Shown here piece by piece: positions 9,236-41,596 of a DNA stretch of 48,780 nt. How positions within the stretch are numbered: position 1 is the stretch's first letter; the number at the start of each line of letters is the position of its first letter. Source of the stretch: an uncultured Christensenella sp. (GTDB lineage: Bacteria > Bacillota > Clostridia > Christensenellales > Borkfalkiaceae). Location: positions 1-48,780 of the forward strand of contig CAZXOQ010000001.1 in NCBI GenBank assembly GCA_964642415.1, written 5' to 3'. The position numbers and the translations under genes are program-made. The notes below the pieces were generated by a model that saw nothing but the letters and a program-made list of their open reading frames with translations, did no database searches and had not been told where the DNA came from.

Positions 9236-9294
9236 ATAATAAAACCTAATAAAACCGCATAATATGCATATATTGTTGCATATTATGCGGTTTT
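9236..9294 (-). terminator. Strong terminator closing the 16-gene train
   Basis: An 18-bp perfect stem pairs aaaaccgcataatatgca (9251..9268) with tgcatattatgcggtttt (9277..9294) around an 8-nt loop. The stem ends in a U-run, and ATTAGGTTTTATTAT follows on the minus strand. Confidence 0.8.
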
Positions 9295-9332
9295 ATTCAT
9301 AAATGTTAAAATGTCAAAAATTATTTTGATTT

Positions 9333-11561
9333 TTACGCTACAGGTAGTTCTTCTAAAGGAGGCTCTACTGCATAAATTACCACCCTTTCTTTTCCGCTAC
9401 CAAAGCCCGTGGGATTGGCAAGAACTATCTTATAAGCTTCGTTTAATTCTAACGTTACGCCAAGCTCTGCGCCCGATTTATGCTCGGTTATCAGTTCTTT
9501 ATTTACGGCGTCATAAGAAACGGTTAGAACTTCTTCACCCTTGTTTGTGGTGACGGTTGCAATAATAGCGCCGTCTTCTTCACCGAAAACTATAGTGGCG
9601 TTACCCTTTTTAAGTTTTGCCGTATAACTGCCGACAAGCATTTCCGTTACGTTCGGCGGATCGATTACGGTAATAGTTACGGTACATTCCGCTTTGCCTT
9701 TTATCGATCTTAACCTTACGGTATAAGTTCCCGCTTTTGTTGCGACAAATTCCGCTGCGGCTGCGCCTTCCGCATACGATACACTTGCATAATCGCTTGC
9801 TATACCAAGCGAAGGTGTAAATCCGCTTTCAGCATAAGGCTGCTCGTCTATCGAAAGTTTTGTCTTTACCGAAAGGCTTTGCCCAACGTATACTTGCGCG
9901 GCTATATTTTTTGTGACCGACTCTTTCCAACTGTAGCCGTTATCGCCGTATTCGTAATAACACGGATACAATGCGCTTGGCGCGCATGGCAATACGTTTA
10001 TTACAAAGCGTTTTTCCGCTCCGCTTGTAGTGCGCGCGGCAAGCGTAACATAACCTTTGGTTTTAGCTCTTAAGTCTATTGTACAAGAGGTTTCGTTAAA
10101 AGAACCTGCCCATACGGGGTTACTTGTAGAATACGCAAAATCCACAGGAACGTAACGCCCCGTCGATAACACGCGATAAAACACTACGCCATCTAAAGAA
10201 AAGTTTGCAGTTGACGGCTGAACGTTGTTCAAATACAGCTTAAGAATGCTGTCACCACCGCCGGCAACAAGTTGCGGAGCGGTTTCTTTATCTTCGGTTA
10301 TGGCGATATAATCGCCGTCGCTTCTATAACACACGTCAAAATCGGATATTTTAAGCGAATTTTCGTTATACTCGTGAACGGGTTCTTCAGGAGCGTCTTT
10401 TTTGAGTATCTGATTATATATAATATACTCGGCGGCTCTCGGCTCGCCGCAACCCGTTTTTAACTTACAAACAGTTTTGTTTTCTACCTCGCTTATTTCA
10501 AACTGCGACTGTACGTACGTATCGCAACTGAGCTTGATATAATCTATAGCATACTCGTCTGTTAAAGTAAACTCCACCTCTACCTTATTAAGCGTTGACG
10601 GCACGTTGAAATAACAAAAACTGAATTTATACAATATACGCGTTATACCGTTATCTTCTTTTTCGGTGATTTGAACGGTAAAATCTTGGTTGGTATCTTT
10701 TGCGCCCCATTCGTAAGAATATTTTAGCAAGCCTTCCGCTCCGAAAAACGTTTTGCCGGCAAAGCTGATTTTATATTCGTAACCGTTTAAGTGGTCTTTA
10801 CGAATGTTAGCGTATTCTTCTACGTTTGTAGAACCGGAAGTACCGATTACGCCGAAAACTCCGCCGTTTTCTTTTTGAATCGCCCAAAGTTTAGTGCTGC
10901 CGTTATCCGTTTTGGTATACCCTTCACCGTATTCGTAACTTGCGCCATAAATAGATTCGTCACCGTTAAGGTCAAACTTAATGCTGGCAGTGCCGCGTCT
11001 TATCAAATCTTTATTGCTAGATCCGAGAAGAACCGCGTCATAAACGGTTTCCTTATTCGCTTTTAGCGGATCTATATCGGGGTTGCCCGTAGGGTAAAAC
11101 TCTTTTTTGCCGATTGTTATGGTAAAAATTATGTCACCGTATTCGCTTTCGTATATCAAGGCAAGCTTGCCATCGGATAATACGGTGGCTTCTTTTACAA
11201 TTTCGTGATACTTATAGCCGGAATAACTTTCGCTTAAACGCGGCAAGGTTACTTTTATATAGTGCGAAGAATCCTCTTTACATATCTTGGTTGCTTCACC
11301 TTTGCCGTCCCTTTCGTACGTGGGGGCTTTCGTTATCTCCCAATCGGTGTAAACGTGGTTTTCCGCAATAGGTTCGGTCGGTTCTTCTACCACCTCTCCG
11401 CATAAAGAACATATGCCGTATCTAACGCCGTTTGAGGTACAAGTGGCTTCGGTTTTTACCTTCCATCTGAATACTTCGTGTCGGCAACCGCATGCAAACA
11501 TACCGGATGCCGCCAAACAAAGCAGCAAAAGGGTTATAAGCATTGCAATCTTTTTTTTCAT
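9333..11561 (-). CDS. Surface lipoprotein (742 aa) with N-terminal Cys/His knuckle modules, function unknown
   Basis: ATG at 11561 has AAGGAGG upstream. The signal peptide and lipobox are ...ASGMFAC. The mature N-terminus is GCRHEVFRWKVKTEATCTSNGVRYGICSLCGE followed by a degenerate second unit (NHVYTDWEITKAP...KICKEDSSH). I recognise no family in the rest. Confidence 0.85.
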   Translation of the reverse strand: MKKKIAMLITLLLLCLAASGMFACGCRHEVFRWKVKTEATCTSNGVRYGICSLCGEVVEEPTEPIAENHVYTDWEITKAPTYERDGKGEATKICKEDSSHYIKVTLPRLSESYSGYKYHEIVKEATVLSDGKLALIYESEYGDIIFTITIGKKEFYPTGNPDIDPLKANKETVYDAVLLGSSNKDLIRRGTASIKFDLNGDESIYGASYEYGEGYTKTDNGSTKLWAIQKENGGVFGVIGTSGSTNVEEYANIRKDHLNGYEYKISFAGKTFFGAEGLLKYSYEWGAKDTNQDFTVQITEKEDNGITRILYKFSFCYFNVPSTLNKVEVEFTLTDEYAIDYIKLSCDTYVQSQFEISEVENKTVCKLKTGCGEPRAAEYIIYNQILKKDAPEEPVHEYNENSLKISDFDVCYRSDGDYIAITEDKETAPQLVAGGGDSILKLYLNNVQPSTANFSLDGVVFYRVLSTGRYVPVDFAYSTSNPVWAGSFNETSCTIDLRAKTKGYVTLAARTTSGAEKRFVINVLPCAPSALYPCYYEYGDNGYSWKESVTKNIAAQVYVGQSLSVKTKLSIDEQPYAESGFTPSLGIASDYASVSYAEGAAAAEFVATKAGTYTVRLRSIKGKAECTVTITVIDPPNVTEMLVGSYTAKLKKGNATIVFGEEDGAIIATVTTNKGEEVLTVSYDAVNKELITEHKSGAELGVTLELNEAYKIVLANPTGFGSGKERVVIYAVEPPLEELPVA

Positions 11562-11583
11562 ACTTTAATTACCTCCTTTTGCC

Positions 11584-13056
11584 TTATGCGTAATAGCCGC
11601 ATGCAAACAGCCATTGATTGCTGTCGCTAGAACTGTAAAACTGCTCGAAATTGCCGTTTATATCGTATACGCCTTCCGCACTGCCGGTGCCGTCGTTGAA
11701 TATGCGTTTGCTCTTTGAATAACGTTGCAAGAAGTCCTTTAATTCTTCCGTAACGGGGTAAACTCCGTCTTTATTGCAATAATCACCGTACGCTTTATCA
11801 AAGCTATAGCCCGCTAAGCCTATAAACGTACCGTAATTATAAAGGTTGGTTTGCTTAGTTTTTTCGTCATATTCGGTAAGGAATATATTATTCATCCCCT
11901 TAAAGCCCGAACCGATAGTTTCGCCGTCGGATGAAGACAAAACTTCGCAATCTTGAGTGATTTTTGCATACAAACGGGTTTTGAAGTTTCTTTCTTCGTC
12001 TACTATATAATAATAAGAAAATCCGTCTTCTTCTATCAACTGTATATAACTGCCGTCAAGCAAACCGTTATTATTGCCGTACCATGCGTAGTATTTGAAA
12101 CTGCCCGACGTATACTTTGAATCGAATGCCGTATCTTTTGCATTTTCAAAATCGTGGGTGGCGTACATCTTTAGCCAAGAATCCCTTTCCGTCCCCGTAA
12201 AGTCACCGTCACGATCAAGAATAAAATCTATATTTATCGGAAAAGCGCCTTTATCTAAGGTCGTTGCGTATATTCTAAAGTTAAATACGTTACCCGTATG
12301 CGAAGAGGATATATTAAATTCCCAACGGAAATTTTTAGTATAAGTATTTGAAGAACCGCCGTCGTCTAACGTTTCTTTTACAGACTCGTTTACATATTCC
12401 GAGCTACCGTTATGCATATCTAACAACGGATTTATCTTATTTTGCGTAATATCAACGTAAGACTCTATCGTATATTCGCCTTGTAGCGTCGGTCGGTAGG
12501 TAAAACGAACGCCGTCTTCAAAATTGTCTGCAGTAAGCATAACACGGTATGCCCCCAAAGATTCTATAGCGCATATATCGTCATACCAATTAGTTCCCGT
12601 TCTGCCGTTGGGTACGGTAGACAATTCATACAGTTTTATCACTGCGTTTGGCGAATCGTTTCCGACTATGTGCGCTTCGTCGTTCGGGTTATAGGTATAA
12701 CCTTCGGGTACGGAGCTTAACGTTACCATATAGTCGCCGTCTAATCCGCTGATTTCGGCTATGCCTTTAGAGTTGAACGCCGCCGTAAACGACGCGCCGT
12801 TATTGCTGTCTATATTTGTCCATATAGCTTTTATTTCAGCTAATTCTACGGATGTAAAGGTTTTTTCGCAATCGAAGGATACGGTAAAGACTTTTTCCGA
12901 CGTTTGCCCCGAACCGCCGCCGCTTCCACCGCTTGTGCCGCCGTTATTGGTGCTGCCGCCCGTTCCCGGAAGTAACGTTCCGCCGCAGGACGCCGCGGTA
13001 ATCATTATCGCAGCGCACAAAAAGAATGCAATTATGCTTTTAAATTTCTTTTTCAC
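11584..13056 (-). CDS. Surface lipoprotein (490 aa), condensed paralogue of the C-terminal half of the 1013-aa lipoprotein
   Basis: GTG start at 13056 has GGAGG upstream. The lipobox is ITAASC, followed by a Gly/Ser linker. One prealbumin-like module ends LSSVPEGYTY. A GAYRV... jelly-roll-like region follows. The C-terminal module is ...GVYPVTEELKDFLQRY...NQWLFACGYYA. Confidence 0.85.
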   Translation of the reverse strand: MKKKFKSIIAFFLCAAIMITAASCGGTLLPGTGGSTNNGGTSGGSGGGSGQTSEKVFTVSFDCEKTFTSVELAEIKAIWTNIDSNNGASFTAAFNSKGIAEISGLDGDYMVTLSSVPEGYTYNPNDEAHIVGNDSPNAVIKLYELSTVPNGRTGTNWYDDICAIESLGAYRVMLTADNFEDGVRFTYRPTLQGEYTIESYVDITQNKINPLLDMHNGSSEYVNESVKETLDDGGSSNTYTKNFRWEFNISSSHTGNVFNFRIYATTLDKGAFPINIDFILDRDGDFTGTERDSWLKMYATHDFENAKDTAFDSKYTSGSFKYYAWYGNNNGLLDGSYIQLIEEDGFSYYYIVDEERNFKTRLYAKITQDCEVLSSSDGETIGSGFKGMNNIFLTEYDEKTKQTNLYNYGTFIGLAGYSFDKAYGDYCNKDGVYPVTEELKDFLQRYSKSKRIFNDGTGSAEGVYDINGNFEQFYSSSDSNQWLFACGYYA

Positions 13057-13066: not shown

Positions 13067-15751
13067 CTACATTTTGCCCTTGCCGAACAAACTGCGGATA
13101 TCTTCCCACCGTAGTTTGCGGATAGCAACGTCTGCAGCGAAAAGTATTACGCTTATCACCAATAACGTTACGGTTAAATCGTATATATACGTGCTAATTA
13201 AGCTTTCGTCGTTTTCTATAAACAGTCTATCGCCGTCTTTCATCACCTTGCCGTAAGAGCCCACCATCTTTTGCAACGAAGACTTATCGTAAGAAGCAAA
13301 CGCGTCGTATTCAGGCAAGTAAGACAAGTTATAAGTAAAGCTTGCCGTATAGTTTGCGTCACCGGGGTAAATATATTCTACGTTGATAGAATATTTGCCG
13401 ACGGCTGAAGGCTCGAACCGATAAGAGTATGATGAAGATGAAAAACTCATATCCTGAGATTCCGCAAGTTTATCGTTATCCGGTCCTGTCACGGTTATTT
13501 TAGCTTTAACGCGAGTATCAACGCGCGCAGGCGTAAGCGTCACGTTAACAAAACCGTTTTCTTCTATCATCGTTGCGACGAAAGGATAAGAAGCTTTTTC
13601 CGTAGGGGTGTTGGTATCGAACACGTTAGAAATAAACTTATCTCTTTGCGGCAACCCCTCGGTTGTTATTTTATCTAGGTTACACGCAAGCGTTGAAACT
13701 TTGCCGTTGCCGTAATTCCAATAAGAATATAGCGGAACTTTTTCAATCTTTCCGTTTTCTCGCTCGTACAAGCTTTCTAACACGGTAACGGCGCTCCATT
13801 TAGACCTGTTATATAAAAAGCCCGTTACGTAATCGCTTGGATTAATCTCGATATCTTTTAGCACGCTATCCGAACTTCTGACTACGTTTATGTGCGCGTT
13901 ATCGTCAATGACCGCGCTGCCGAAGTCGTCTAACAATCCTTTGCCGAATTCTACTTCTAATTCGTCTTTATTAGAAGCAAAGTAATATTCGCCACCCGTT
14001 TTTTGAGCAATGCTTTTAAGCAACGCTTCCGCAGAAGAAGACGCCGCACTGGTATCGTTGCCGCGACCGACGTCTATAACCGACGCGGAAATTCCGTATT
14101 GATTAAGTTTTGTAAGCTGCTCCGTAATCAACGCGGTTTCGTCAGCGTCGCCTACCGTCATACCGTCGCTTATAAGCATTATTTGCTTTTGACCGTAGCT
14201 TAGGTCTTTGATAAGCCTTACCGCTTCTTGTAATCCGTAACTGATAACAGTGCCGTGGTGCGTGTATAAGTCGTCTACCGCTTTGATAGCAAGTTCTCTC
14301 GTAGAATAAATCTCACCGCTTGCGGGGGTGTCGGATATTTCTTCCGGCATAAATACGGGATGATAATTACCGTCAAAAGACACTATGCATAAGTTATCTT
14401 TTTCGTTAAGCTTAGTTATAAGCTGTTTCGCGGCTGTTTTAGCTATGGTAAATCTTTGATTAAGATCCATACTGTAAGACGCGTCTATAACCAACGTATA
14501 AAGTTTAGAGTCCCTATCGGCGTTGCCGAATCTAACTGGTAACATACTGCCAAGCGAAGAAAGCTCTTCTTTTTCGTGCAAATAAACGTTGCCGTACGTT
14601 ATAAGGCTTTTGCCGAATAGCGACACAGCAGAATCAAGCCCTTCTATAAAAGCTTTATAATCGCGCGATTTAGTTAGATCTACGTTAGATAAAATAATTT
14701 CGTCATACAAGCAAAGCTGCTCTGAACTGCAAGGAATTTCGTCGTTAGTAGAAAAAGAATCAACCGTCGCTTTTATATCGTAAGCTCTTTCTATATCGAC
14801 GCGGTCGGAATCGTTATCCGTGATAAGCAACACGCGAGCCTTGCCCGAAACCTTTTGTGTAAATATAACGCTGTTGTTAAACTTATTTTCGTCGTCATCG
14901 GCGGTTACGGTTACGCGATAATCGAATACCCCCTCGGAATTAGTATCTAGGTTGAACCCGACAACGTTATATCCGTTGGTAAGATTTGCAATCCTGCTTT
15001 CAATTTCTATACTGCCCCTATAAAGCGAAAGTTTTGCTTGAGCGGAATAGGTGCTTTGTATAGTTATTTCAGCGCTTTCAGCCTTGCCGAGGTAGGTGTT
15101 TTGAGTAACTTCTGCTGAAATAATTTGAATTTCTTTCGCGCTAGACGAAATATTGTTGTCTAAATATACCGCGTCAACGTAAACGTTTTCCGCTCGCAAC
15201 GTATCGGCGGCGCGTTTTAGCGCGTTTGAATCGCTCAAATGCGTCTGTTTGCCGTCGGATATTACGACGATTCTTTTTATAACGTCGTTTCTGAACAAGG
15301 AATTTGCGTAATCTAAAGCCGACTCTATATCCGTTTCGCCATCGTTAAGCAATTCGGTATTAGCGCCTCTTACGCTTTTTAAGTTGCTACCGAGCCTTAC
15401 GTATAATTGTTGTTCTTTAGCAAAACACACAACACCCATCTCCGCTCCGCGCGGAAGATTTGCCTTAAGCTCTTTTATATATCCGTCCATCGTGTCGAGA
15501 TTTTTATTTGAAGAATAAGAAACGTCGGCTAAAACGTAAACTTCCGTTTTGGTTACGGTGGTTTCTATCGTTGTGCCTGCGGCGGTGAACGCTATTATCA
15601 CGGCAAGCAAAACGTGTATAACGCACGAAGCCACGCTATGCCAATTAGCATTTTCCTTACGAACGGCAATAATAAACGGAACGACAAGCAATATTGCAAG
15701 CGGTATTGCAAGCAATAACAAATAGGGATTATCGAAGCTGATACTGCTCAT
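13067..15751 (-). CDS. Membrane-anchored protein with two vWA (MIDAS) domains, BatB-like
   Basis: I prefer ATG at 15751 (MSSISFDNPYLLLLAIPLAILL...), which has GGGGGGTG upstream. The ORF-track start at 15790 is a TTG lying inside the upstream gene. The protein has two N-terminal TM helices and two DxSxS motifs (LADVSYSS, VIDASYSM). A C-terminal TM helix is followed by a basic tail. Confidence 0.85.
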   Translation of the reverse strand: MSSISFDNPYLLLLAIPLAILLVVPFIIAVRKENANWHSVASCVIHVLLAVIIAFTAAGTTIETTVTKTEVYVLADVSYSSNKNLDTMDGYIKELKANLPRGAEMGVVCFAKEQQLYVRLGSNLKSVRGANTELLNDGETDIESALDYANSLFRNDVIKRIVVISDGKQTHLSDSNALKRAADTLRAENVYVDAVYLDNNISSSAKEIQIISAEVTQNTYLGKAESAEITIQSTYSAQAKLSLYRGSIEIESRIANLTNGYNVVGFNLDTNSEGVFDYRVTVTADDDENKFNNSVIFTQKVSGKARVLLITDNDSDRVDIERAYDIKATVDSFSTNDEIPCSSEQLCLYDEIILSNVDLTKSRDYKAFIEGLDSAVSLFGKSLITYGNVYLHEKEELSSLGSMLPVRFGNADRDSKLYTLVIDASYSMDLNQRFTIAKTAAKQLITKLNEKDNLCIVSFDGNYHPVFMPEEISDTPASGEIYSTRELAIKAVDDLYTHHGTVISYGLQEAVRLIKDLSYGQKQIMLISDGMTVGDADETALITEQLTKLNQYGISASVIDVGRGNDTSAASSSAEALLKSIAQKTGGEYYFASNKDELEVEFGKGLLDDFGSAVIDDNAHINVVRSSDSVLKDIEINPSDYVTGFLYNRSKWSAVTVLESLYERENGKIEKVPLYSYWNYGNGKVSTLACNLDKITTEGLPQRDKFISNVFDTNTPTEKASYPFVATMIEENGFVNVTLTPARVDTRVKAKITVTGPDNDKLAESQDMSFSSSSYSYRFEPSAVGKYSINVEYIYPGDANYTASFTYNLSYLPEYDAFASYDKSSLQKMVGSYGKVMKDGDRLFIENDESLISTYIYDLTVTLLVISVILFAADVAIRKLRWEDIRSLFGKGKM

Positions 15752-17651
15752 AGCAATACACCCCCCAATCGGCGACGAACAACGCCGCAAGAATTATAAA
15801 CAATATGATAATATCGTCGTAAACACCGTCTTTAGTTAAAGCAACCGCTTCACCGGTTATTTCAAAACTAGAACATTCCGCAACGGGAACACCCTCTTCA
15901 TACGGGGTTTGCGCATACATATAAACCGTTCTTTCGGCGGCGTTTAAACCGCCCGTTTTTACCGTTACGGCATATAAGCCCGTTTCTTTTAATTTATATT
16001 GCGTTACGGCGGTTTCGGTATCGAGTTCTTCGTCTGCACCGCTCGGAGAAGTAACGCGGATACTTACGCAGTTGGCAACGACGTTTATATCGGCGGTGTC
16101 TCCGCAAAAATAGTCTGATTTATCTATGATAGACGGAAAAGTATACTCAAGTAAATTATTTGTAAGTTGCAGCCAATTGAAGCCCAACACAAAATCGGAA
16201 TCGTTAAGGCTGAACGCAAAAACAACTTCTCTGTTGCCGTAATCGTTAGAACCGGCAAATAAAACGGGATTCCCCTCGCAATACAAAAGAGAAACAAATT
16301 CACCGTTTATGCTGTATTTAGAATAATTTGACAATGCGATTTCTTCGTTTTTATCTACACCGGACAACAGCTTTCTCACGGTTGAAGCGGAAGATTCGCT
16401 ATACGTTAAAATTCTTTTTGCGTCTTCACCGGCGTTACTTTGATAACTGAAGCCCGATGAGTTTACGTTTGTGGGAGAAAAAAACCAAACCGCGCCCGAT
16501 TCCGGCATTCTTTCGGGCGTATAGCCGTTAAAAATATATAATCCGTAAGTAAGCGAATGGACGGAATTTTCATATTCTTTTGGCGTAATAACGTCTGCCT
16601 CGCCGTATCCCAACGCGCTGAGTGCGGACTTTATAAAGAACGGTCCTTCGCTTACGATAAGCGCGCTAAAAGAGGAATCGCGTTTTACGTTATACTTAAT
16701 AATAGCGTCGTCTGACGGAAAAGCGTCGTCTGAGTTTATCGCTATGCGTAACGAGCGGTATTCGGTGACCCCCTCGCATAAGATAGAAAAATCTGTCGCG
16801 AGAGAAAGCAACTCGTCGGAAAGTTCTTCTTTTTCGTCGGGAATCGCCACAGTATCGTTTATTCCTTCGATTTCGATATCAACGCTAGCCGTTGCAACGG
16901 AATTTTCGTCAATATATGCCGAAACGGTAAGATTTTTGTTATTCCCGTAAGAAATTGCCTTGCCGTAAATTTCTAAACCTTTTTCGGTAAAAACCGCATT
17001 TGCAGCCAATACGGCACAGTTTTCTTCGCTATAAGACAGATTGCACACATTCACGTTAGATACCGAACGGAAATTTTTATCCGTCATAAAATACACGGAA
17101 GGCGCGGTTGTTTTGTCAAATATCTTTTGAGCCTCGGAAAGAACGGACTCCGTATCCGCCGAAACGGAATCTGCAACCGTTTCTTTCAGCAATTCTACGG
17201 CGCGCTCTTTATCGGTAAGTTCTTTATACGCGACGACGGCTGTATCCCCCGCGCAAATAAGAGTATAACTGCTTCCGTTGCCCGATTGCAAAATAATTTC
17301 TTCTATTTTAGATTTTCCGCGTTCGAAACGGGTGCTTCCGTCTTGAACAAAATTCATACTAACGGAACAATCGAGAACAAAACAATAATCGTTAGCCTTA
17401 CCTTGCAACGCAAACACCGGATGCGCGGTTGAAACGGAAATACAAATAACGGCAAGAATTTGCAGTATTAAGCTTAAAATATTGTAAATACGCGTTATCG
17501 GGTTTTTGTTTTTCAAAAACCTTTCGCTTAGCGTCCAAATATAAGTTGACGCAACCGTTTGTTCGGTATATTTATTTTTTATAATGTAAATGATTATTAG
17601 GATAGGTACGGCTATCAACCCCAATAATCCTAAGGGATAAAGAAATGTCAC
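15729..17651 (-). CDS. BatA-type N-terminal double-TM protein with vWA-like domain
   Basis: GTG start at 17651 overlaps the DUF58 stop (GTGA). MTFLYPLGLLGLIAVPILIIIYIIK is the aerotolerance-regulator N-terminal (BatA_N) pattern. A second TM helix follows, then a MIDAS-like FVLDCSVSM motif and a C-terminal TM helix. Confidence 0.8.
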   Translation of the reverse strand: MTFLYPLGLLGLIAVPILIIIYIIKNKYTEQTVASTYIWTLSERFLKNKNPITRIYNILSLILQILAVICISVSTAHPVFALQGKANDYCFVLDCSVSMNFVQDGSTRFERGKSKIEEIILQSGNGSSYTLICAGDTAVVAYKELTDKERAVELLKETVADSVSADTESVLSEAQKIFDKTTAPSVYFMTDKNFRSVSNVNVCNLSYSEENCAVLAANAVFTEKGLEIYGKAISYGNNKNLTVSAYIDENSVATASVDIEIEGINDTVAIPDEKEELSDELLSLATDFSILCEGVTEYRSLRIAINSDDAFPSDDAIIKYNVKRDSSFSALIVSEGPFFIKSALSALGYGEADVITPKEYENSVHSLTYGLYIFNGYTPERMPESGAVWFFSPTNVNSSGFSYQSNAGEDAKRILTYSESSASTVRKLLSGVDKNEEIALSNYSKYSINGEFVSLLYCEGNPVLFAGSNDYGNREVVFAFSLNDSDFVLGFNWLQLTNNLLEYTFPSIIDKSDYFCGDTADINVVANCVSIRVTSPSGADEELDTETAVTQYKLKETGLYAVTVKTGGLNAAERTVYMYAQTPYEEGVPVAECSSFEITGEAVALTKDGVYDDIIILFIILAALFVADWGVYCYEQYQLR

Positions 17652-21124: not shown

Positions 21125-21151
21125 ATATTTTGCCTCTTTTTCCCGTTTAGT

Positions 21152-21181: not shown

Positions 21182-21231
21182 CGAGATTCTCTGCGTCGTT
21201 TATCCGTTTAAGATAAACTTCTTTTTAATTT

Positions 21232-30206: not shown

Positions 30207-30241
30207 GCTTTTACCGCGCGTTTCCATCGCGCGGTAAAAGC
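30207..30241 (-). promoter_or_regulatory. Stable intra-operon hairpin between the binding-protein gene and the permease genes
   Basis: A 14-bp GC-rich stem pairs gcttttaccgcgcg (30207..30220) with cgcgcggtaaaagc (30228..30241) around loop tttccat. No U-tract follows on the minus strand. This position is typical of hairpins that uncouple binding-protein levels from membrane components in ABC operons. Confidence 0.45.
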
Positions 30242-34099: not shown

Positions 34100-37000
34100 C
34101 GATTATCTTCTCCGTTGTTTTTTTCTTTTTTCAAAGTATCTTTGCGATCTCCTATAAACTTAAACGCAATCGCGATAAGAATAAATAACACAGCAACAGC
34201 GTATCCGCCAACGTCAACCGTTGCGCCGCAACCGCTTGAGGGTTCGTCTACCGGTTGTTCGTTTGAATCAGCGGCTTTTACGTTTACGGCAACGAATAAT
34301 TCAGTCGTTTCGCCGTTTTCGTTAGTATAATTTATCGTAACGTCACTGTTATACGTGTATAACGCACCCGTAGATACAAGCGTCAATTTAGTTGAATCTA
34401 TAATTTCGGTTGATCCGTCGTCATACATTACGGTCACGCTTAAGCCGCTCATATCGAAGGTTTCGCCTTCAACGTAATCGATTTTATACCCTTCGTTTGC
34501 GGTTATATATTGAATTCTAACGGTAACGCCGTAAAGCTTTTTGATAGCACGCATTTGATTTTCTACCGAAGTCAAGCGGTCTACGTATCCGTCTTTAATA
34601 AATACCTGCTGAGATTTGGTTACGTTGCCGTACAGTCTGCGAACTTCTTTTACGGTTTCGGAAAAAGATTCTACGTCAGCCTTATACGTTTGCGTATCAC
34701 CGTTTTTAGCCGTTGAAAGCCATAACGAAAGCGTTTCGTCGCTAACAAGATTTTCCGCAGCGGCGTTAAAGCTACGCGTAACGTCGTCTATCAACTCACC
34801 GATAAGAGTTTTTGTGCCGAAGTATCTGCCGTATACGTAGTTATCGTATCCGACGCCGTTAGACGGATAATTTATTATAAGCTCGCTCTTTTCGCCCACT
34901 TTATCGGTATAATATACAAACAATTCGTCAAAGTTTGAATAATAATAGCTGTAAATCACGGGGTCGGTAAGCGGACTTTCCGAGTTGACGTATTCGTTTT
35001 GAATTTCGTCTACCGTAGAATTATATAACGTTTCAAGAACAGGCGCTTTAATGCTTTCAAAAGTATATTCGGTTATTCCGCTTCCGTAAAAAGCAAGATT
35101 ACCAATCAACTTTAAGCTATACGGGAATGAAATTTTAGCAAGCGATTCGTCGGTTGCTTCGATATTTTCACCAATCATATAGAAAGCGTAGTCGTCTATT
35201 CTCACCGTCCCGTCTACAACTTCGTATGAAGATTCGCTTACGGCTTTTGCCGTCGGATAACAAATAAGAACGTATCCGCCATCGGTGTTTTTATAAAGAA
35301 CGCCGTCTTTTGCAAAGAACAACTCGTTTTCTTTTGCTACGCTAATATTTTCAAGCTTGGTTGCGCAAGCAAAAACACCGTAACCAATCTCTTTTAGCGT
35401 CGCGGGTAAAGAAATTTCGGTAGCATGGTTTCCGTAAAGCGCCATATCGTCTATTTTTTCTACGACGGGCATCACGATTTTAGAAAACGCGCCTTTAGCG
35501 TTGCCAACCGCGATTGCAGCCATACCTATTTCTTTTACCGAGTTAAGCGTTAATTGATCTAGGGCGTTACAGTTATAAAAAGCGTAATCGCCTATCTTAA
35601 CTACTTTTGAAAGGTCTATATTTTTAAGTTTACCGCATTCGGCGAAAACATAGGATTCTATTTCGGTTATATTATTTAATTCAACGACCGTAAGAGCGGA
35701 ACAGTTAAAGAATACCGAAGTTTTTATCTTTGATATGCCGCTGCCGAAAATCACTTCTTCAAGAGATGCGCAGCCTTTAACGTTACCCGAAAAAGAGAAC
35801 TCTACAAACGTATAACTGCCTATATCGGTCACGTTATCGCCGAAAACCACCTTTTTGAGAGAGTTGGCTTTACCGAAAACATACGTGCCGGTTTTTTTAG
35901 CGGACGGAACGGTTATTTCGGTAATGCTTTCGCATCCGTAGAATGCAAAGCTGCCTAAATTTTCAAGATTTTCGGGTAAACTGCTTATTTCAAGCACCTT
36001 ACAGTTACGGAACGCGCTATCGCCTATTATCTTAACGTTTTTGCCGAGAGAAATTTCCGAAAGGAAATTACAGTTTGCAAACGCATAAGCGCCAATTTCC
36101 GTTACGGAATCGGGGAGCTTTATCGTCGAAAGATAAGTGCCGTAAAACGCTTCCGCTTCTATTTCGGATATTTTTGAACCGCTTTCAAAGGTTATCGAAT
36201 TAAGTTTAGAGTTCTTAAACGCGCCTTTACCAATAGATTTTACGCTTGACGGAATAGTAATTTTGCCTATATAAGCGTCGGCAAACGCGTAATCGTAAAT
36301 AGCCGTAACGCTGTTTTCAACTATAACTTCGTCTTCCTCGTCAAGCAAAGCCAAAAGAACGGTTTTATCTTTGTTATAAAGAATATTTTTTTCTATAACG
36401 TAGTCGTTGCCATTAAGCTTTATATTCGTATAACCGCCGAACATTGCACCCGAAAGTTTAATTTGTTCTAACGCGAAATCGGAAGGAAGAATTATCTCGG
36501 TAATCGAGTTACCAAATAAAACGTTCTCACCCCATTCGGTTACGCCGCTCGGAACGGTAAACGAAGAAATATTTGTATCGGCAAATGCATAATCGCCTAT
36601 TTTACGAACTTTGCACCCTTTGATATATTCAATCTTAGCTAAACCGCTATATCTAAACGCTTCAGCCCCGATAACGTATTCGGTATCGTTTTGGTTAAGC
36701 GATACTTTTTTAAGTTTAGCGCAACCGTAAAACGCCTTGTCGCCTATCACGGAATTGTTAAGCTGAATATATGCAAGTTGCGTGCAATTTTTAAACATTC
36801 CGTTACCGATTGCTGTAAATTCGCCGGTGGTTATCGATGATAGTTTTTCACACTCGGCAAATACTTCTTCTCCGGCAACGTGCATACCCGTCAAATCCAA
36901 ACTTGTTAAAGATTTGCAACCGTAAAACGCTCTGTCAAACGCCGTGCCGATCGCTTGCGGTTTTATTATTTCTTTTAAGCTAGAACAACCGTAGAAAGAA

Positions 37001-40000
37001 TTTACACCCATCGTAACGACTTTTACGTTGCTTAAATCGAGAGTTTCAAGCGAAATACAACCGTTAAACGCGTTGCGATATATAAGCTTTATATCAGCGT
37101 CGGCTATTTCTTGTTTCTCACGGCTGACAAAATAAACCTTTTTAAGTGCGGCACAATTTATAAAGGCGCTTTCGTTTATATTCATAACCGTTTTGGGGAT
37201 AATAACCTCTTCCATCGTGGTATTATCTTTAAACGCTTCTACGCCGATATACATTATACTTTTATCGTCGGGTATCTCAACTATTTTATCTTTGCCGCGA
37301 TATTCTTTTAGGGTATAATCGGAAATTACAAACGGATCAAGTACCCTCACGGTAAATGCCGCGGAATAAATCGTTTCGTCACCGTTATCGTCTAAGAAGG
37401 TTGCGCTTATGCTTGCAGAACCTTTCTTTTTTAGATTGAGCTTGCCTTTTTGATCTACTTCGGCAACGTCGGTATTGCCCGATTCCCATTTTATATTTAA
37501 CTCTGATTTGGGATAGTACCACGGATCGGTTTCTAAGCCGAGCGTTATCTCTTGATCGGGATACAGCGCAACCGTGCCGGACGCAGTTACAAGCCTTTCT
37601 TCGCTATCGGCTATAACGGAGAATGAAAGCGACGGTCTGCCGAGCGGTTGAGAGTTTTCCGTTGTAACGGTAACTTTTATCGTTCTTTCAACGCCCTTCC
37701 CGTTAGATACCGTTATATTTGCAACGCCTGCTTTTAGTCCGACGATTTCACCGTTTTTAACGTCGGCAATAGACGCGTTATTAGACGACCAAGTGAAATT
37801 TGAAAGATTTGCGTCGCCGCTATATGCGAGCGAAACCTTATGAGTTTGATATACGCCGAGAGTTATATTTTTCTCTCCCTCGTTTAATTCAAACGTATCG
37901 GGCGCAACGCCGGCGTTAGCCTTGGTTAAATCTATATAATACATACTGTGATTCAATGCATAGTCATCTAGTTGCAAATATAGATTGCTTTTGTATTTTT
38001 CGTAAATATCGGTAATATCGATCGAAACGGTATTTTTACCGTTCTTTACACTGTCGTAAATAGGTGTAACGTAGTCGGTAACCTGTTTAAGTTCGTCGCC
38101 GTCTTGATAGCACAAAAGCGCGGACTGAGCGTAATGGTTATCGAATATATCTAAATCGAGATATATATTTTGCTTTACAACGTTGCCGTCTTTATAATCG
38201 TTAAATCTAATACGTGCGTCTTGCAATACGGGAGCTTCGTAATCGGTATAGAAAGAGAAAGAATAGGTTTCTCTTGCCGGTTCGGATTCTACGCCGTTAA
38301 TGGATACCGTATCGGAGATAAACTCAAAGTCCATCGTATACTTGCCGTTAGAAACCAAGCCGTTTTCTAGCGGAGGTAATTCAAATTTTACGAACGCAGG
38401 TCTTCCGCTGCTACCGCCGGTGTAAGCTTTTGCAACTCTGTTTACCGTTTCGCTACAAATAATCTCGCCTGTTTCGGCGTTTTTAAGCGAATAATTGACT
38501 ATACGAGCACCGCGTAACAATCCTACGTATAGCCCTCTGAATTGCCATGCGGTAAGATAATTGTTATTATTATTTTCGCCGTAATACAAGTTATAACAAG
38601 ACATTGCGTTATGCTCTTCTTCGGTATAAACGCGCGTTGCGTTTTCGTTTTGCAAATAAGCAAACGTGCCCATCGGCATAGAATAATCTTCGTTATAATA
38701 CATTGTATAAGGCTGTGTTGCCCATACGCTTGCATTAAGCTTGTCTTCATCGTCTACGGAAGAATCTTTAAGCGAAGCGTCTACTTCATATGCCGTACAA
38801 TCGAGCATAGGCGCAGCAGCCCAATCCCCGTAGAACCCCATAAAGGGCAAAGTTAAACCGCATTGTTCTTCGGTTTTGCTTTCTAAACTTACAAAACCTT
38901 CGACAAACATTCCGTTTTTAAAGCTATCGTCTATATACTTCTTTTCGGCGGAAGAAAGCGTGAACGTAACGGTTATAGTTGCAACGGAATTGCCGCTAAC
39001 GGTAAGATCGTTGCCGCTCTTGCTTGCGCCCTCTACGCTCCACACGGGAGTTATATCGTCTAATATATGAGCTTGTTCCGCAACGGCAAGACCGTCACTT
39101 GCAAGCGTTTCGGTCATAAATACCGGATTTACGGTGAAAGTATACGCAGTATCGGCAAAGTTTGCAATCTTAAATTCAACTGTGTAGCTTCCGCTCTTTT
39201 CGGGATCATGCCCTAAGTTGACAACGGGGCGATAATCCGTATCCTCGTTTTCGGTATAAAGATATACTTTAGAATTTATAGCGTTTTTAAGGCTACCGAG
39301 TCCCGCGCCTTGTTTACGCGGAGAATACGGCAAACCGTCTCTATCGTATATAATATTTGCGGTACTCATAATAAGCTGATTTACGCGCTGAGTAAGTTCG
39401 TGCGTATTAAGATTGCTTTGAGTTTCTTTTAAATAGCTTCTTATAATAGAAACAACGCCTGCCATATTAGGAGAAGCCATACTCGTACCGCTTTGCTCGC
39501 CGTATCCGCCCGGAACGGCAGAAGTAATTTCGCCGCCGTGCGCGGTTATCTCCGGCTTAAGCTTAAGATCGGGCGTACATCCCCAAGAAGAGAATTCGCT
39601 CATAAACGGACCGGCAAGTTGAGTTTTATCTATTGTTACCGTGCCGATTCTTCCGTTAGTAGAAGCGTATTTCGCCATTGCGTTACCGGCATCCATCGTA
39701 ATAGCGGCAGAAGGTATCGGATCAACAACTTCGCCGAGCGACATTCTTATCGAACCGGGTACGTTATTATAAACAATAATACCGATTGCCCCCATACTTG
39801 CGGCTATTTCAACTTTATCTTTAAAAGTGTTGTCGCCACGCTTTACTAAAGCTATACGGTTGCCTGCCTTTAACGCGGCTTTAACCGACGGAGTGTAATC
39901 CGAAACTTTGCCGACGCCGGGAACGGAAACGTATTCTATTGTTTTGCTATTTTCCGAGCCTAGCATTTGCTCGGCAAAATTAAAGCTTTTGCTGTATTGG

Positions 40001-41451
40001 TCGTTTGATTCTTCATAATAAACGGGAGTATTTCCGTTAGCAATCATATACGGCGACATTTTTCCGCTTATACTAGCGACCGATAATGCTGAAGAAAATA
40101 CCGAAGGAGAACCTACCGTACCTGAATCGGGGTTCGACGCAAGGTTTGTTCCGAAATTTCCGCCGTAGCCCGAACTATAGTCGTTGCTTGCGGCGCAAAC
40201 CAAGCTGATACCCGCTTCGCGTACGCTTGAGTAAACTCTATTAAGCTCTTCCCCCTCGTCGTCACCGTCGGCAGTCGTAGAAAATCCGCATGAAGTACCT
40301 AAACTCATGTTTATAACGTCAACGCCGAGCAACACGCAGTCTTCGAGCGCGGCTAAAATATCTTCGGTTTGAGCACCGTTAACCTCGCTGTCTTCCATAT
40401 CGTCGGTAAAAACCTTGCATATGACAAGCTGAGCTTCGGGCGCAACACCGATAAACGCTTCCGGTACGTGATTACCGTCTTTATCGGTATACCCGTTGGG
40501 ATCGTAACCCGCAACTATACCTGCAACGTGAGTTCCGTGATTAGAATAAGAAGGATACACGTCTGCATCACTATCGGCGTAGTCGTATGCAAAAGGCACT
40601 TTTTTGCTTATATAAACGTCTTTTGCACCTAATTCCTTGCCACCGAGATTTTCTCTGTTTTCAGCAACAAGGTCTTTGTCTTTTAAGATATTTTCTATCG
40701 AAGCGTAATCGAAAACCGCTTCGTTCATAGGATATTTATCGGCATAAACCTTAAAAGCATCGTGCGTGTAATCCAAACCGGTATCGATTACGGCAACGAC
40801 CGAACCATCACCCGTATACTTTACTTCGGATGAATCATAAACGCCCGTTGCATAAACTTTGGTTTCGTTTATAACGGCAGCGGCGCGCGTAATAGCTGAG
40901 TCACTGTTTTTGGTATCGTATATACTATATGAACCTTCAGCCGTTTCGGGATGCGCGTAAGTTTCCGAAACGCAAACGCTTGCCACGCCTGAAATAGCTT
41001 TGATAGAAGATAAATATTTAGTATTAACCTTTACGGCAACGGCGTTATCGATTGCGGAATAACGGTATTCTAAAGTATAAGGAATACCTGCAGAACCAAG
41101 CTTACTTAAAAAAGCGTCTTGATCTTTTTTTATTTTACGCGCGGAATTTTGACCTTTAGAAGTGCCGATAAAATCGTTCACGTCATCGCCGCAAGCTTCT
41201 TCAACAAGGTTTTTACCGTCAAGACTAACTATAACGGTACGTATTTCACCCGTAGATTGTTCTTTTATAACGGAAGATGATAAATTTTTAAGAACGATAT
41301 CCGACATATCGATTTGCCCCGTTACATCGGTAAACAAAGCGCCGTCGGCATAAGAAACAGTGCCGCCGAACTCTAAGTTGCCTATAACGGGCGATAAACC
41401 GATCATCGCCGCAAGCGCAAAACATAACAACCGTCTTTTTGTTCTTTTCAA
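34096..41451 (-). CDS. Giant (2451 aa) subtilisin-family S8 cell-envelope protease with I9 propeptide, PA insert, Big_2 domains, BspA-type LRR region and C-terminal TM anchor
   Basis: TTG start at 41451 has AGGAGGG 6 nt upstream and precedes the Sec signal MKRTKRRLLCFALAAMIGLSPV. The catalytic triad is D223 in VAVIDTGLD (40783..40785), H305 in SNHGTHVAG (40537..40539) and S657 in SGTSMASP (39481..39483). A PA-like insert (RIALVKRGDNTFKDKVEIAASMGAIGIIVYNN) sits between His and Ser, as in lactocepin and C5a-peptidase types. Big_2-like TWSSNNASIADVKNGEIVGLKAGVANITVS lies at about 37340..37960. LRR_5/BspA-like repeats (IGVEAFKDNTTMEEVIIPKTV...) cover about 35050..37330. The C-terminal helix is YAVAVLFILIAIAFKFI, followed by a basic tail. 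There is no LPXTG motif. Confidence 0.9.
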   Translation of the reverse strand: MKRTKRRLLCFALAAMIGLSPVIGNLEFGGTVSYADGALFTDVTGQIDMSDIVLKNLSSSVIKEQSTGEIRTVIVSLDGKNLVEEACGDDVNDFIGTSKGQNSARKIKKDQDAFLSKLGSAGIPYTLEYRYSAIDNAVAVKVNTKYLSSIKAISGVASVCVSETYAHPETAEGSYSIYDTKNSDSAITRAAAVINETKVYATGVYDSSEVKYTGDGSVVAVIDTGLDYTHDAFKVYADKYPMNEAVFDYASIENILKDKDLVAENRENLGGKELGAKDVYISKKVPFAYDYADSDADVYPSYSNHGTHVAGIVAGYDPNGYTDKDGNHVPEAFIGVAPEAQLVICKVFTDDMEDSEVNGAQTEDILAALEDCVLLGVDVINMSLGTSCGFSTTADGDDEGEELNRVYSSVREAGISLVCAASNDYSSGYGGNFGTNLASNPDSGTVGSPSVFSSALSVASISGKMSPYMIANGNTPVYYEESNDQYSKSFNFAEQMLGSENSKTIEYVSVPGVGKVSDYTPSVKAALKAGNRIALVKRGDNTFKDKVEIAASMGAIGIIVYNNVPGSIRMSLGEVVDPIPSAAITMDAGNAMAKYASTNGRIGTVTIDKTQLAGPFMSEFSSWGCTPDLKLKPEITAHGGEITSAVPGGYGEQSGTSMASPNMAGVVSIIRSYLKETQSNLNTHELTQRVNQLIMSTANIIYDRDGLPYSPRKQGAGLGSLKNAINSKVYLYTENEDTDYRPVVNLGHDPEKSGSYTVEFKIANFADTAYTFTVNPVFMTETLASDGLAVAEQAHILDDITPVWSVEGASKSGNDLTVSGNSVATITVTFTLSSAEKKYIDDSFKNGMFVEGFVSLESKTEEQCGLTLPFMGFYGDWAAAPMLDCTAYEVDASLKDSSVDDEDKLNASVWATQPYTMYYNEDYSMPMGTFAYLQNENATRVYTEEEHNAMSCYNLYYGENNNNNYLTAWQFRGLYVGLLRGARIVNYSLKNAETGEIICSETVNRVAKAYTGGSSGRPAFVKFELPPLENGLVSNGKYTMDFEFISDTVSINGVESEPARETYSFSFYTDYEAPVLQDARIRFNDYKDGNVVKQNIYLDLDIFDNHYAQSALLCYQDGDELKQVTDYVTPIYDSVKNGKNTVSIDITDIYEKYKSNLYLQLDDYALNHSMYYIDLTKANAGVAPDTFELNEGEKNITLGVYQTHKVSLAYSGDANLSNFTWSSNNASIADVKNGEIVGLKAGVANITVSNGKGVERTIKVTVTTENSQPLGRPSLSFSVIADSEERLVTASGTVALYPDQEITLGLETDPWYYPKSELNIKWESGNTDVAEVDQKGKLNLKKKGSASISATFLDDNGDETIYSAAFTVRVLDPFVISDYTLKEYRGKDKIVEIPDDKSIMYIGVEAFKDNTTMEEVIIPKTVMNINESAFINCAALKKVYFVSREKQEIADADIKLIYRNAFNGCISLETLDLSNVKVVTMGVNSFYGCSSLKEIIKPQAIGTAFDRAFYGCKSLTSLDLTGMHVAGEEVFAECEKLSSITTGEFTAIGNGMFKNCTQLAYIQLNNSVIGDKAFYGCAKLKKVSLNQNDTEYVIGAEAFRYSGLAKIEYIKGCKVRKIGDYAFADTNISSFTVPSGVTEWGENVLFGNSITEIILPSDFALEQIKLSGAMFGGYTNIKLNGNDYVIEKNILYNKDKTVLLALLDEEDEVIVENSVTAIYDYAFADAYIGKITIPSSVKSIGKGAFKNSKLNSITFESGSKISEIEAEAFYGTYLSTIKLPDSVTEIGAYAFANCNFLSEISLGKNVKIIGDSAFRNCKVLEISSLPENLENLGSFAFYGCESITEITVPSAKKTGTYVFGKANSLKKVVFGDNVTDIGSYTFVEFSFSGNVKGCASLEEVIFGSGISKIKTSVFFNCSALTVVELNNITEIESYVFAECGKLKNIDLSKVVKIGDYAFYNCNALDQLTLNSVKEIGMAAIAVGNAKGAFSKIVMPVVEKIDDMALYGNHATEISLPATLKEIGYGVFACATKLENISVAKENELFFAKDGVLYKNTDGGYVLICYPTAKAVSESSYEVVDGTVRIDDYAFYMIGENIEATDESLAKISFPYSLKLIGNLAFYGSGITEYTFESIKAPVLETLYNSTVDEIQNEYVNSESPLTDPVIYSYYYSNFDELFVYYTDKVGEKSELIINYPSNGVGYDNYVYGRYFGTKTLIGELIDDVTRSFNAAAENLVSDETLSLWLSTAKNGDTQTYKADVESFSETVKEVRRLYGNVTKSQQVFIKDGYVDRLTSVENQMRAIKKLYGVTVRIQYITANEGYKIDYVEGETFDMSGLSVTVMYDDGSTEIIDSTKLTLVSTGALYTYNSDVTINYTNENGETTELFVAVNVKAADSNEQPVDEPSSGCGATVDVGGYAVAVLFILIAIAFKFIGDRKDTLKKEKNNGEDNR

Positions 41452-41567
41452 AATAACCCTCCTAAGGAGATCGCTTTATTCGCATTGTTTTAAATACATA
41501 TTTCACAATTTAAAACAAGAAATATAATAGCGACGTAATAATATTCAACAAATTTCCACAAGTATAT

Positions 41568-41596
41568 ATTTTAACCGAAAAGTCAACAATTGTCAA
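41568..41596 (-). promoter_or_regulatory. Candidate sigma-70/SigA promoter of the protease-led gene train
   Basis: The minus strand reads TTGACA (41596..41591), a 17-nt spacer, then TAAAAT (41573..41568). A second TTGAC lies 10 nt downstream of the first. It sits about 115 nt upstream of the TTG start within a 440-nt AT-rich gap. Confidence 0.5.

Follow-up and report, generated by a model that had tools for sequence, protein, structure and literature searches.

In Lactococcus, protein is cut outside the cell and peptides are imported (PMC7783315, PMC3587842), and the protease of lactic acid bacteria (LAB) is matured by a dedicated prolyl isomerase (PPIase) lipoprotein of the PrtM/PrsA type (PMC7783315). 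MoxR ATPases have been described as chaperones that mature specific complexes with von Willebrand factor A (vWA) cofactors (PMC3893208). Published phenotypes of the Bat (Bacteroides aerotolerance) and MoxR-proper (MRP) systems are inconsistent (PMC3557215, PMC3893208): deletion of bat genes in Leptospira gave no oxidative-stress phenotype (PMC3557215), and an MRP-type MoxR member affects envelope integrity in Rhizobium (PMC3893208). Here, we analysed a locus of an uncultured Christensenella sp. in which genes resembling both kinds of system stand in one row. The window is the whole stretch of 48.8 kb (48,780 nt; contig CAZXOQ010000001.1), and its listing of open reading frames (ORFs) contains a train of 16 minus-strand genes from 41451 down to 9333, numbered g1 to g16 in that direction.

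The train splits exactly at the 107-nt gap between g9 and g10 into two independently conserved modules. With a probability of roughly 0.6, these are two autonomous operons that lie head to tail and are probably fused transcriptionally in this lineage, module 1 (g1-g9) serving foraging and module 2 (g10-g16) being Bat-like. The genes are as follows (TM, transmembrane):

34096..41451, minus strand: g1, a 2451-aa cell-envelope S8 protease, from Pfam and structure matches
32822..34099, minus strand: g2 (lip425), a 425-aa lipoprotein with lipobox FASAC, its start overlapping the S8 stop by 4 nt
30252..32792, minus strand: g3, an 846-aa family-5 solute-binding protein (SBP), an OppA-type lipoprotein (SBP_bac_5, 3.7e-29; lipobox MTSCG)
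25614..30171, minus strand: g4-g7, the OppB and OppC permeases and the OppD and OppF ATPases with oligo_HPY tails, from Pfam
25355..25609, minus strand: g8 (p84), an 84-aa protein with a C-terminal TM helix, found between OppF and GLUG in Opp-bearing loci
21232..25335, minus strand: g9, a 1367-aa GLUG lipoprotein with an N-terminal GLUG beta-helix and an all-beta C-terminal part of about 870 aa
19622..21124, minus strand: g10 (TM500), a 500-aa membrane protein by TM prediction, first of the seven-gene MoxR module
18577..19569, minus strand: g11, a MoxR AAA+ ATPase (AAA_3, MRP type) with Walker A GVPGVGKT and Walker B LADE
17648..18535, minus strand: g12, a DUF58 protein (DUF58, 2.4e-26; DxSxS at D88) with no TM segment predicted
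15729..17651, minus strand: g13, of the BatA type (BatA_N, 1.2e-10, and VWA_2), with two TM segments at the N-terminus, a vWA domain (metal ion-dependent adhesion site, MIDAS, at D94) and one TM segment at the C-terminus
13067..15751, minus strand: g14, 894 aa long, with two TM segments at the N-terminus, a pair of vWA domains (MIDAS at D76 and D423) and a C-terminal TM segment followed by a basic tail
9333..13056, minus strand: g15 (lip490, 490 aa) and g16 (lip742, 742 aa, with a Cys/His-rich N-terminal part), module-specific lipoproteins that always follow g14

Relatives were collected by a search with g9 and a scan with an alignment of the g9 family (one genome per GTDB species, 10-kb flanks), a scan of metagenome contigs with a g14 alignment and individual contig look-ups, which together gave about 100 related loci (numbered with the prefix L). 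All proteins of the window were compared with all loci by tblastn, and the architecture calls rest on these tables; tblastn was preferred because the ORF caller gave long antisense ORFs for some true genes in higher-GC relatives. The loci come from uncultured Clostridia recorded as Christensenellaceae, Christensenella sp., Ca. Scatosoma or Ca. Coproplasma. Several records (L007, L009-L012) are titled 'uncultured Bacteroidaceae' or 'Bacteroides sp.', share 39-42% GLUG identity and the same Opp/lip425 order, and are probably mislabelled or mis-binned. Five architectures were distinguished:

Architecture (a), the window type: S8-lip425-Opp-p84-GLUG followed by TM500-MoxR and the rest of module 2; kept only in L085 and L086 (GLUG 82% identical)
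Architecture (b): module 1 alone in the same order; L001, L002 and L005-L020 (GLUG 33-48% identical)
Architecture (c): GLUG and S8 as convergent neighbours without Opp; L004, L021-L033 and L048 (about 30% identical)
Architecture (d): the reverse order, with a GLUG-S8-lip425 operon (junctions of -11 and -8 nt); L034-L063 (27-29% identical)
Architecture (e): Opp followed by one or two GLUG genes; L059-L066

After GLUG, architecture (b) continues with unrelated genes or, directly, with an AhpC-like gene, and in nine loci of architecture (d) a complete MoxR module precedes GLUG-S8-lip425. The core of module 1, S8 with lip425 and GLUG, occurs in three gene orders. Lip425 follows S8 in every architecture, and the protease gene, always accompanied by lip425, nearly always has GLUG as a companion too. 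The GLUG family comprises about 48 full-length clusters. In the most distant Opp-bearing loci (L059, L060, L062, L066, L083) the GLUG gene is tandemly duplicated into two genes of about 1350 aa, and in L040, L049 and L061 the GLUG protein is extended to 1739-1929 aa. Module 2 is far more widespread than module 1. Wherever homologues of g14 were examined, TM500-MoxR-DUF58-BatA-VWA2-lip490-lip742 formed an invariant seven-gene block, and TM500 is conserved upstream of MoxR in 15 loci. The g14 family gave 997 matches at E<=1e-20, of which the top 120 are all full-length. The block was found without module 1 nearby in L091-L097, where S8 and GLUG are absent from the flanks, and in L102-L106.

We counted presence within 10 kb in the 31 species loci in which the GLUG gene is flanked by 8 kb or more of sequence on each side. 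S8 was present in 27 of these, an AhpC-like gene in 10, the MoxR module in eight and Opp in seven; in a further two of the 31, lip425 and Opp fill the flank and S8 probably lies just beyond. The initial annotation had proposed to examine the co-occurrence of S8, Opp and MoxR-DUF58-vWA; in these counts, GLUG is often near S8 (27/31) and seldom near Opp (7/31) or the MoxR module (8/31). Gene set and order are not conserved across related genomes, as the GLUG-to-TM500 junction recurs only in L085 and L086 and all other lineages separate or reorder the blocks. The single expression unit of the initial annotation is plausible only for the lineage of the window, where the separating signals are absent, whereas the relatives hold two separate modules.

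Block order can be summarised with letters (P, S8-lip425; O, Opp; G, GLUG; M, MoxR module; X, a gene like that of the 954-aa protein downstream of the train; A, an AhpC-like gene). The window reads P-O-G-M-X-A, and other genomes read M-X-A...P-O-G, M-(X)-G-P, or A...G followed by a convergent P. In CAZRHE010000002.1 (L104/L011) the MoxR module occupies 77.2-89.1 kb, 954-like, YitT and AhpC-like genes extend to about 97.6 kb and S8-to-GLUG lies at about 102.9-123.4 kb, which leaves an inter-module gap of about 14 kb. In CAZLVK010000003.1 (L103/L010) about 17.6 kb separates the end of the MoxR module from S8 downstream of it, an interval that holds ATPase and Fic genes. In GCA_964468815.1 (L105/L001) the MoxR module and a 954-like gene stand at a contig end and S8-to-GLUG lies 33.8 kb inside another contig, so that the modules are at least about 35 kb apart or unlinked. 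Finally, on the 237.9-kb contig of L046/L106 (237,921 bp) they are more than 20 kb apart, the distance being 53 kb if the ENA and NCBI copies share orientation and about 21 kb if they are opposite. Hence, the blocks stay in one genomic region, within which they vary in order and spacing. Two partnerships are the most stable, that of S8 with lip425 and GLUG and that of the MoxR module with the 954-like and AhpC-like genes; the latter partnership reaches past the 3' terminator of the train into 8708-1699.

The initial annotation had also considered that the blocks might be scattered in related genomes and their adjacency accidental. Although they are indeed separate or reordered in most lineages, the adjacency is not pure accident, because the modules adjoin again in the opposite order in a distant subclade and the housekeeping flanks of the window (E1, E2, E3, alcohol dehydrogenase, YlxM) occur in 0/61 related loci. 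Yet it is not obligatory.

Signals at the module boundary differ between the window and its relatives. Among six loci with unrelated genes next to GLUG, five have a terminator with a U tract 6-23 nt past the GLUG stop. Stand-alone copies of module 2 carry a TTGACA-17-TGnTAAAAT promoter upstream of TM500, matching at least 12/13 positions in 4/7 loci; its distance to the start codon is 110-131 nt in six of these seven loci and 235 nt in L102. A hairpin with a U tract follows lip742 in 8/8 loci of architecture (d) examined, and likewise in the window at 9296-9249, so that the touching modules of architecture (d) are predicted to be separate operons. At the junction of the window, L085 and L086, sequence scans found neither the GLUG terminator nor the TM500 promoter of the relatives. 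Two features remain there:

21125..21231, minus strand: the 107-nt spacer between the modules, which contains two hairpins, the large one of them spanning 21152-21181, and lacks a U tract
21242..21247, minus strand: candidate internal -10, a perfect TATAAT in the last g9 codons with a poor -35 (TAATCA)

The spacer folds at -31.8 kcal/mol (z -6.7), with its outer stem kept in L085 and L086. The best promoter-like match at the junction, TAATCA-16-TATAAT, is the only candidate internal promoter for module 2; its TATAAT (21247-21242) is also conserved in L085 and L086, where it is inseparable from coding constraint. Most simply, the strong promoter of module 2 and the terminator of module 1 would both have been lost in this lineage, an operon fusion that would be recent and local. 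Because the consensus boundary signals of the relatives are missing at the junction of the window, one fused expression unit is proposed here, and a lineage-specific transcriptional fusion of the two modules appears plausible.

The layout of the train itself was largely as first described. All 16 genes were recovered, and the 15 junction lengths given in the initial annotation were matched on recomputation from coordinates: -4, 29, 80, 12, 6, -11, 4, 19, 107, 52, 41, -4, -23, 10 and 22 nt. These values need ATG starts at 26711 for g7 and 15751 for g14. The claim that every gene has its own GGAGG-like Shine-Dalgarno sequence was borne out for most genes, which are preceded by GGAG or GGAGG-like motifs, but these are weak at g4, g12 and g13. 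Co-directionality is not specific to the train, as all other family-matching ORFs of at least 100 aa in the 48.8-kb window are also on the minus strand. The expression signals outside the module junction are:

41827..41857, minus strand: intrinsic terminator of the upstream 2-oxoacid dehydrogenase unit, with a 13-bp stem, 8 GC pairs and a T7 tail
41568..41596, minus strand: predicted near-consensus sigma-70 promoter, TTGACA-17-TAAAAT, an 11/12 match
30207..30241, minus strand: stable stem-loop without a U tail in the SBP/OppB gap, from the fold of the 80-nt gap
9249..9296, minus strand: strong intrinsic terminator with a 20-bp stem at the end of the MoxR module

Consensus scans for promoters and terminators agreed with the earlier statement that the two flanking terminators are the only strong ones. 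Those at 41857-41827 (-28.2 kcal/mol, z -6.5), which forms the 5' limit of the train, and at 9296-9249 are by far the strongest on the minus strand. The remaining terminator-like matches are not commoner than in shuffled sequence (34 vs 24±5.5 and 24 vs 22.6±5.2), and no canonical terminator was found inside the train in these scans of the window. The single promoter that had been reported, 41596-41568, is the best minus-strand intergenic match and lies in a 375-nt AT-rich spacer upstream of the S8 gene; similar scores occur inside genes, at 37280 and 22236. The total of promoter-like matches barely exceeds that of shuffles. We therefore left the internal promoter- and terminator-like matches (22236, 37280, 29171) uninterpreted. 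Both of the larger gaps hold hairpins without U tracts, as had been noted: besides the module junction, this applies to the 80-nt SBP/OppB gap (-29.7 kcal/mol, z -5.3), where the position of the hairpin is kept in 9/14 relatives and the sequences are unrelated. In operons of ABC importers, internal stem-loops can raise expression of the binding protein, and we take this one to resemble them. Rfam gave nothing credible for the whole window at gathering thresholds or for 8650-9350 at E<=1, and neither the hairpins nor a 440-nt leader downstream of the train match a riboswitch or leader family.

Several points weigh against the reading as two operons fused in one lineage. The fusion is read from missing consensus signals; termination or RNA processing might still occur at the hairpin at 21181-21152, and the TATAAT at 21247-21242 could drive module 2. 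The modules adjoin in two orders (P-O-G-M and M-(X)-G-P) and lie on the same strand within tens of kb wherever this was measurable, and this recurrent closeness together with the unconserved housekeeping flanks implies more linkage than simple independence predicts. Moreover, every protein encoded by the two modules is extracytoplasmic or bound to the membrane, a pattern compatible with a common function, and the substrate of the importer is only putatively peptide.

Some of these points favour a reading in which all 16 genes constitute one integrated surface-assembly or foraging system, with MoxR/DUF58 and the vWA proteins maturing, anchoring or organising giant surface proteins, namely S8 and GLUG as well as the 954-aa and AhpC-like proteins. 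Under this reading, genuine functional dependence would underlie co-transcription of the modules in the window. The co-directional adjacency in two orders spans lineages with GLUG proteins only 27-29% identical, the modules elsewhere lie within about 14-55 kb while the flanks of the window are conserved in none of the 61 loci, the described chaperone role of MoxR with vWA cofactors (PMC3893208) would suit such a system, every product is membrane-bound or extracytoplasmic, and the junction has neither terminator nor promoter. In contrast, module 2 occurs in many Clostridia without S8 or GLUG in its flanks (L091-L097), the GLUG/S8 core lacks module 2 within 10 kb in 23 of the 31 fully flanked species loci, and a terminator separates the touching modules in all eight loci of the reverse-order subclade. 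Inherited regional synteny with local shuffling also accounts for the closeness without a functional tie. We regard an integrated system as unlikely.

Equally doubtful, in our judgement, is that the modules are adjacent but separately expressed, with the hairpin at 21152-21181 stopping or processing the RNA of module 1 and the weak TATAAT promoter driving module 2. On this view, the 32-kb 'unit' would only look like one because the genes are tightly packed in a genome with strong strand bias, and the remaining family-matching ORFs of the window are indeed co-directional too. The hairpin is very stable (the gap folds at -31.8 kcal/mol, z -6.7), and L085 and L086 retain its outer stem. The perfect -10 lies about 118-123 nt upstream of the g10 ATG, in or near the range implied for the promoter of the module in other genomes (about 85-108 nt), and the Leptospira bat cluster is reported to contain independent promoters (PMC3557215). 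However, the hairpin has no U tract, the candidate promoter matches only 3/6 positions of the -35 and has no TG extension, and the signals of the relatives are much stronger at both positions, which argues for loss rather than substitution. The least probable proposal is that MoxR/DUF58, the vWA proteins and the lipoproteins are an apparatus for the assembly, retention or protection of giant surface proteins, its clients being the S8, GLUG, 954-aa and AhpC/TSA redoxin proteins whose genes accompany it in varying order, which, if true, would provide the first concrete client set for Bat-type MoxR modules. Two operons fused in this lineage remains our preferred reading, and their juxtaposition would seem to be a peculiarity of local interest and not a system of a new kind.

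The domain calls of the initial annotation (S8, Opp, GLUG and MoxR-DUF58-vWA) were all upheld, GLUG through the PF07581 matches of homologues. Protein g1 comprises a signal peptide, an S8 domain (Peptidase_S8, 3.1e-38) with a PA insert (528-591), Fn3_5 (fn3_5, 756-871), Big_2, and a C-terminal half with LRR_8 and seven LRR_5 stretches of the BspA type, followed by a C-terminal TM. Residues 206-902 align contiguously to 7edd, 5xyr and 6vjb (1e-65 to 1e-70), and the structures matched at about 1e-70 are those of C5a peptidase, SpyCEP and the lactobacillal cell-envelope proteinase (CEP) CEP A. The triad D223/H305/S657 is intact in DTG, HGTH and GTSMASP motifs and aligns to that of C5a peptidase. 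Streptococcal C5a peptidase and SpyCEP are thus the best structural-sequence matches of this region; they are, however, sortase-anchored virulence proteases with Fn3 tails, unlinked to Opp, GLUG or LRR_5 arrays. Of the features that define the CEP group, g1 has the S8 triad, PA and fn3_5 but not the LPXTG or S-layer anchor. A motif search found no LPXTG motif in g1, and its anchor is instead a TM helix (2412-2430) with a K/R-rich tail, whereas members of the CEP group use LPXTG/sortase anchors, as in PrtP and ScpA, or S-layer-type anchors.

The analogy with PrtP plus Opp that had been drawn is apt for g1-g9. Like the PrtP-PrtM-Opp system of LAB, module 1 combines a large surface subtilase with a PA insert and Fn3-like domain (g1) with a five-component Opp-type importer. 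In lactococci, prtP/prtM and opp reportedly lie at separate loci; here, protease and Opp stand in one co-directional block that is kept in at least 16 species loci. Further differences from PrtP are the BspA-type leucine-rich repeats in the C-terminal half of g1, the 1367-aa GLUG lipoprotein as an obligate neighbour and the SBP of 846 aa. The analogy fails for the PrtM maturase and the LPXTG anchor, both of which are absent. The locus has no PrtM/PrsA-type PPIase, although a PrsA elsewhere in the genome is possible. As a candidate for such a maturase, g2 was ruled out by its AlphaFold2 model and Foldseek, and it has no PPIase match. The model (31 homologues, mean confidence score pLDDT 87.6) contains InlB B-repeat-like domains followed by a small GLUG-like beta-helix, and Foldseek against the Protein Data Bank (PDB) matched nothing but the InlB B-repeat (E 0.014) and, weakly, helices of the pectate-lyase type.

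The Opp set is complete, with SBP_bac_5, two BPD_transp_1 domains, OppC_N (2e-11) and two ABC_tran plus oligo_HPY pairs, so that g3-g7 have the domain set of the Opp/Dpp type (PepT family). The SBP is about 300 aa longer than a typical OppA, its SBP_bac_5 match falls in two stretches, and the SBPs of relatives measure 847-884 aa. OppD (26701-27990, minus strand) has 429 aa; its N-terminus is extended by about 45 aa and its ABC_tran match is split, features that are likewise conserved in relatives. Family-5 SBPs can also bind nickel, opines and some sugars. A peptide substrate is therefore only inferred, from the conserved linkage to the protease.

In g9 of the window, GLUG stays below Pfam significance, and PF07581 is found on most full-length homologues. 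The C-terminal part of g2 shares with g9 the beta-helix motif F-x-G-x-F-x-G-x-G-x-T-I; the motif FSGVIQGNGYTI in g2 is similar to FAGVFNGKGNTI, which stands where the GLUG region of g9 begins. BLASTP found no paralogy among the large lipoproteins of the window at 1e-3, and the likeness of g2 and g9 is confined to the motif level. The four large lipoproteins of the initial annotation are g2, g9, g15 and g16, and the SBP is a fifth. The C-terminal 868 aa of g9 were modelled by AlphaFold2 as an all-beta array with repeated F(D/N)GxG motifs (pLDDT 87.8), for which Foldseek found no PDB neighbour with a TM-score above 0.14, only low-scoring propellers and Rhs/teneurin shells; a likeness of these motifs to YD repeats is a lead rather than a result. 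The GLUG beta-helix motif relates g9 and g2 to GLUG surface proteins such as the N-terminal parts of IgA1/Zmp proteases (PF07581, PF05342), and distant GLUG matches combine PF07581 with PF05342 or PF09479. In contrast to the IgA1/Zmp type, the GLUG lipoproteins here are not fused to a protease and are genetically coupled to a separate S8. Pfam and NCBIfam searches gave only noise for g2, g8, g9, g10, g15, g16 and the 954-aa protein.

Module 2 shares with Bat/MRP operons an AAA_3 MoxR ATPase, DUF58, a BatA-type double-TM vWA protein, a second TM vWA protein and intact MIDAS motifs. In g11, AAA_3 (6.7e-62) is followed by AAA_lid_2, its Walker motifs are intact, and the DUF58 gene comes next after a 41-nt gap. 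The Bat-type assignment therefore stands for the core of MoxR, DUF58 and BatA/B, but not for BatC, BatD and BatE: no match to BatC (tetratricopeptide repeats), BatD or SH3/BatE was detected in g10, g15 or g16 or in 11-12 homologues each of g15 and g16. Unlike in Bat operons, TM500, which matches no family, stands upstream and two family-less lipoproteins stand downstream; Pfam searches with 11-12 homologues of each lipoprotein gave no family. The second vWA protein also differs, with 894 aa and two vWA domains, the host belongs to Gram-positive-type Clostridia, and the conserved downstream partners are a secreted protein of about 1000 aa and a surface AhpC/TSA redoxin. Matches of g13 and g14 to the NCBIfam BatA and BatB models fall far under the cutoffs.

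By the positive-inside rule, the vWA domains of g13 and g14 probably face outward. This agrees with the BatA-type vWA domain of BB0173 in Borrelia, which was shown to be periplasmic (PMC5700661). In the lip742 family (g16, 9333-11561), the N-terminal 100 residues or so contain invariant C24, H28, C41, C51, C54, H69, C94 and H100, a pattern that suggests an extracytoplasmic metal-binding or disulfide-rich domain.

These elements can be combined into a working model. The membrane-anchored CEP-type subtilase g1 would cut extracellular protein. Lip425 and the 1367-aa GLUG lipoprotein may act as non-catalytic surface partners, most likely in substrate or host binding, scaffolding or positioning of the protease. 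The Opp importer, with its oversized binding lipoprotein, would capture the peptides and take them up, and the stem-loop after the SBP gene may raise SBP output relative to the permease and ATPase genes. In module 2, cytoplasmic MoxR and DUF58, two membrane proteins displaying vWA/MIDAS domains, a further membrane protein and two lipoproteins could form an envelope complex, whose genes would be read through from the S8 promoter.

Just past the train terminator lies a conserved downstream neighbourhood on the minus strand:

1699..9183, minus strand: the neighbourhood as a whole, outside the train, with a promoter at 9183-9156, a 440-nt leader and three genes
5844-8708, minus strand: a 954-aa secreted protein
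2382-5423, minus strand: a 1013-aa surface AhpC/TSA-redoxin protein (SpaA/Big_1 and Redoxin domains)
1699-2103, minus strand: a 134-aa Big_1 protein

The promoter is a perfect consensus, TTGACA-16-TATAAT. The leader of about 440 nt (within 8709-9183) is GC-richer and moderately structured, has a minimum free energy of -129.5 kcal/mol (z -3.6) and has no Rfam match even at E<=1. In most cases module 2 is followed by the 954-like and AhpC-like genes; this order recurs in L102, L104 and L105, and the Big_1 protein is likewise a conserved partner of the MoxR module in relatives. In L014-L020 these partners follow GLUG directly instead. An extracytoplasmic peroxiredoxin-like protein of about 1000 aa is unusual in itself. 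It is the sole functional hint for module 2 obtained here: the partners of module 2, a large secreted protein and a surface AhpC/TSA redoxin, point to envelope maintenance or redox stress, possibly, and not to proteolysis, and the evidence from the downstream AhpC/TSA gene for a role in aerotolerance or the envelope is circumstantial.

A redox theme recurs around both modules. Loci of architecture (c) (L004, L021-L033) have a conserved divergent trio upstream of GLUG, whose products measure 266 aa, 321 aa (a Fer4 protein) and 200 aa (an AhpC/thioredoxin protein) and beside which stand an AhpC1013-like gene and a gene for a 500-700-aa protein. In L106, a 269-aa protein and a Fer4/AhpC-TSA fusion are encoded 4 kb downstream of the MoxR module. 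Upstream of the train (41890-48734, minus strand) lies a 2-oxoacid dehydrogenase cluster of the acetoin/pyruvate type. It encodes an 821-aa fusion of E1 alpha and beta, E3, an E2 with two lipoyl domains and a zinc alcohol dehydrogenase.

The initial annotation had not recognised the composition of the locus as described, and we likewise found no earlier description of either variant or of their juxtaposition in a limited literature search, which is absence of evidence only. Searches for GLUG with subtilisin and lipoprotein returned unrelated PCSK9/GLP-1 papers only, and those for the GLUG motif or domain returned incidental mentions.

If the preferred reading is correct, it changes no paradigm and adds useful annotation-level biology. 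The window would be a dated example of operon fusion, in which the module 1 terminator and the module 2 promoter known from relatives are absent. Module 2 would represent a clean seven-gene, Gram-positive-type Bat variant with consistent partners, including a surface thiol peroxidase-like protein, and hypotheses for Bat-type modules would be narrowed to envelope or redox maintenance. In module 1, a CEP-type protease would be physically linked to a peptide importer and two previously uncharacterised GLUG lipoproteins, which would give the GLUG domain its first testable context. Abundant uncultured Clostridia of the animal gut would then carry a hard-wired protein-foraging operon, indicative of a proteolytic lifestyle.

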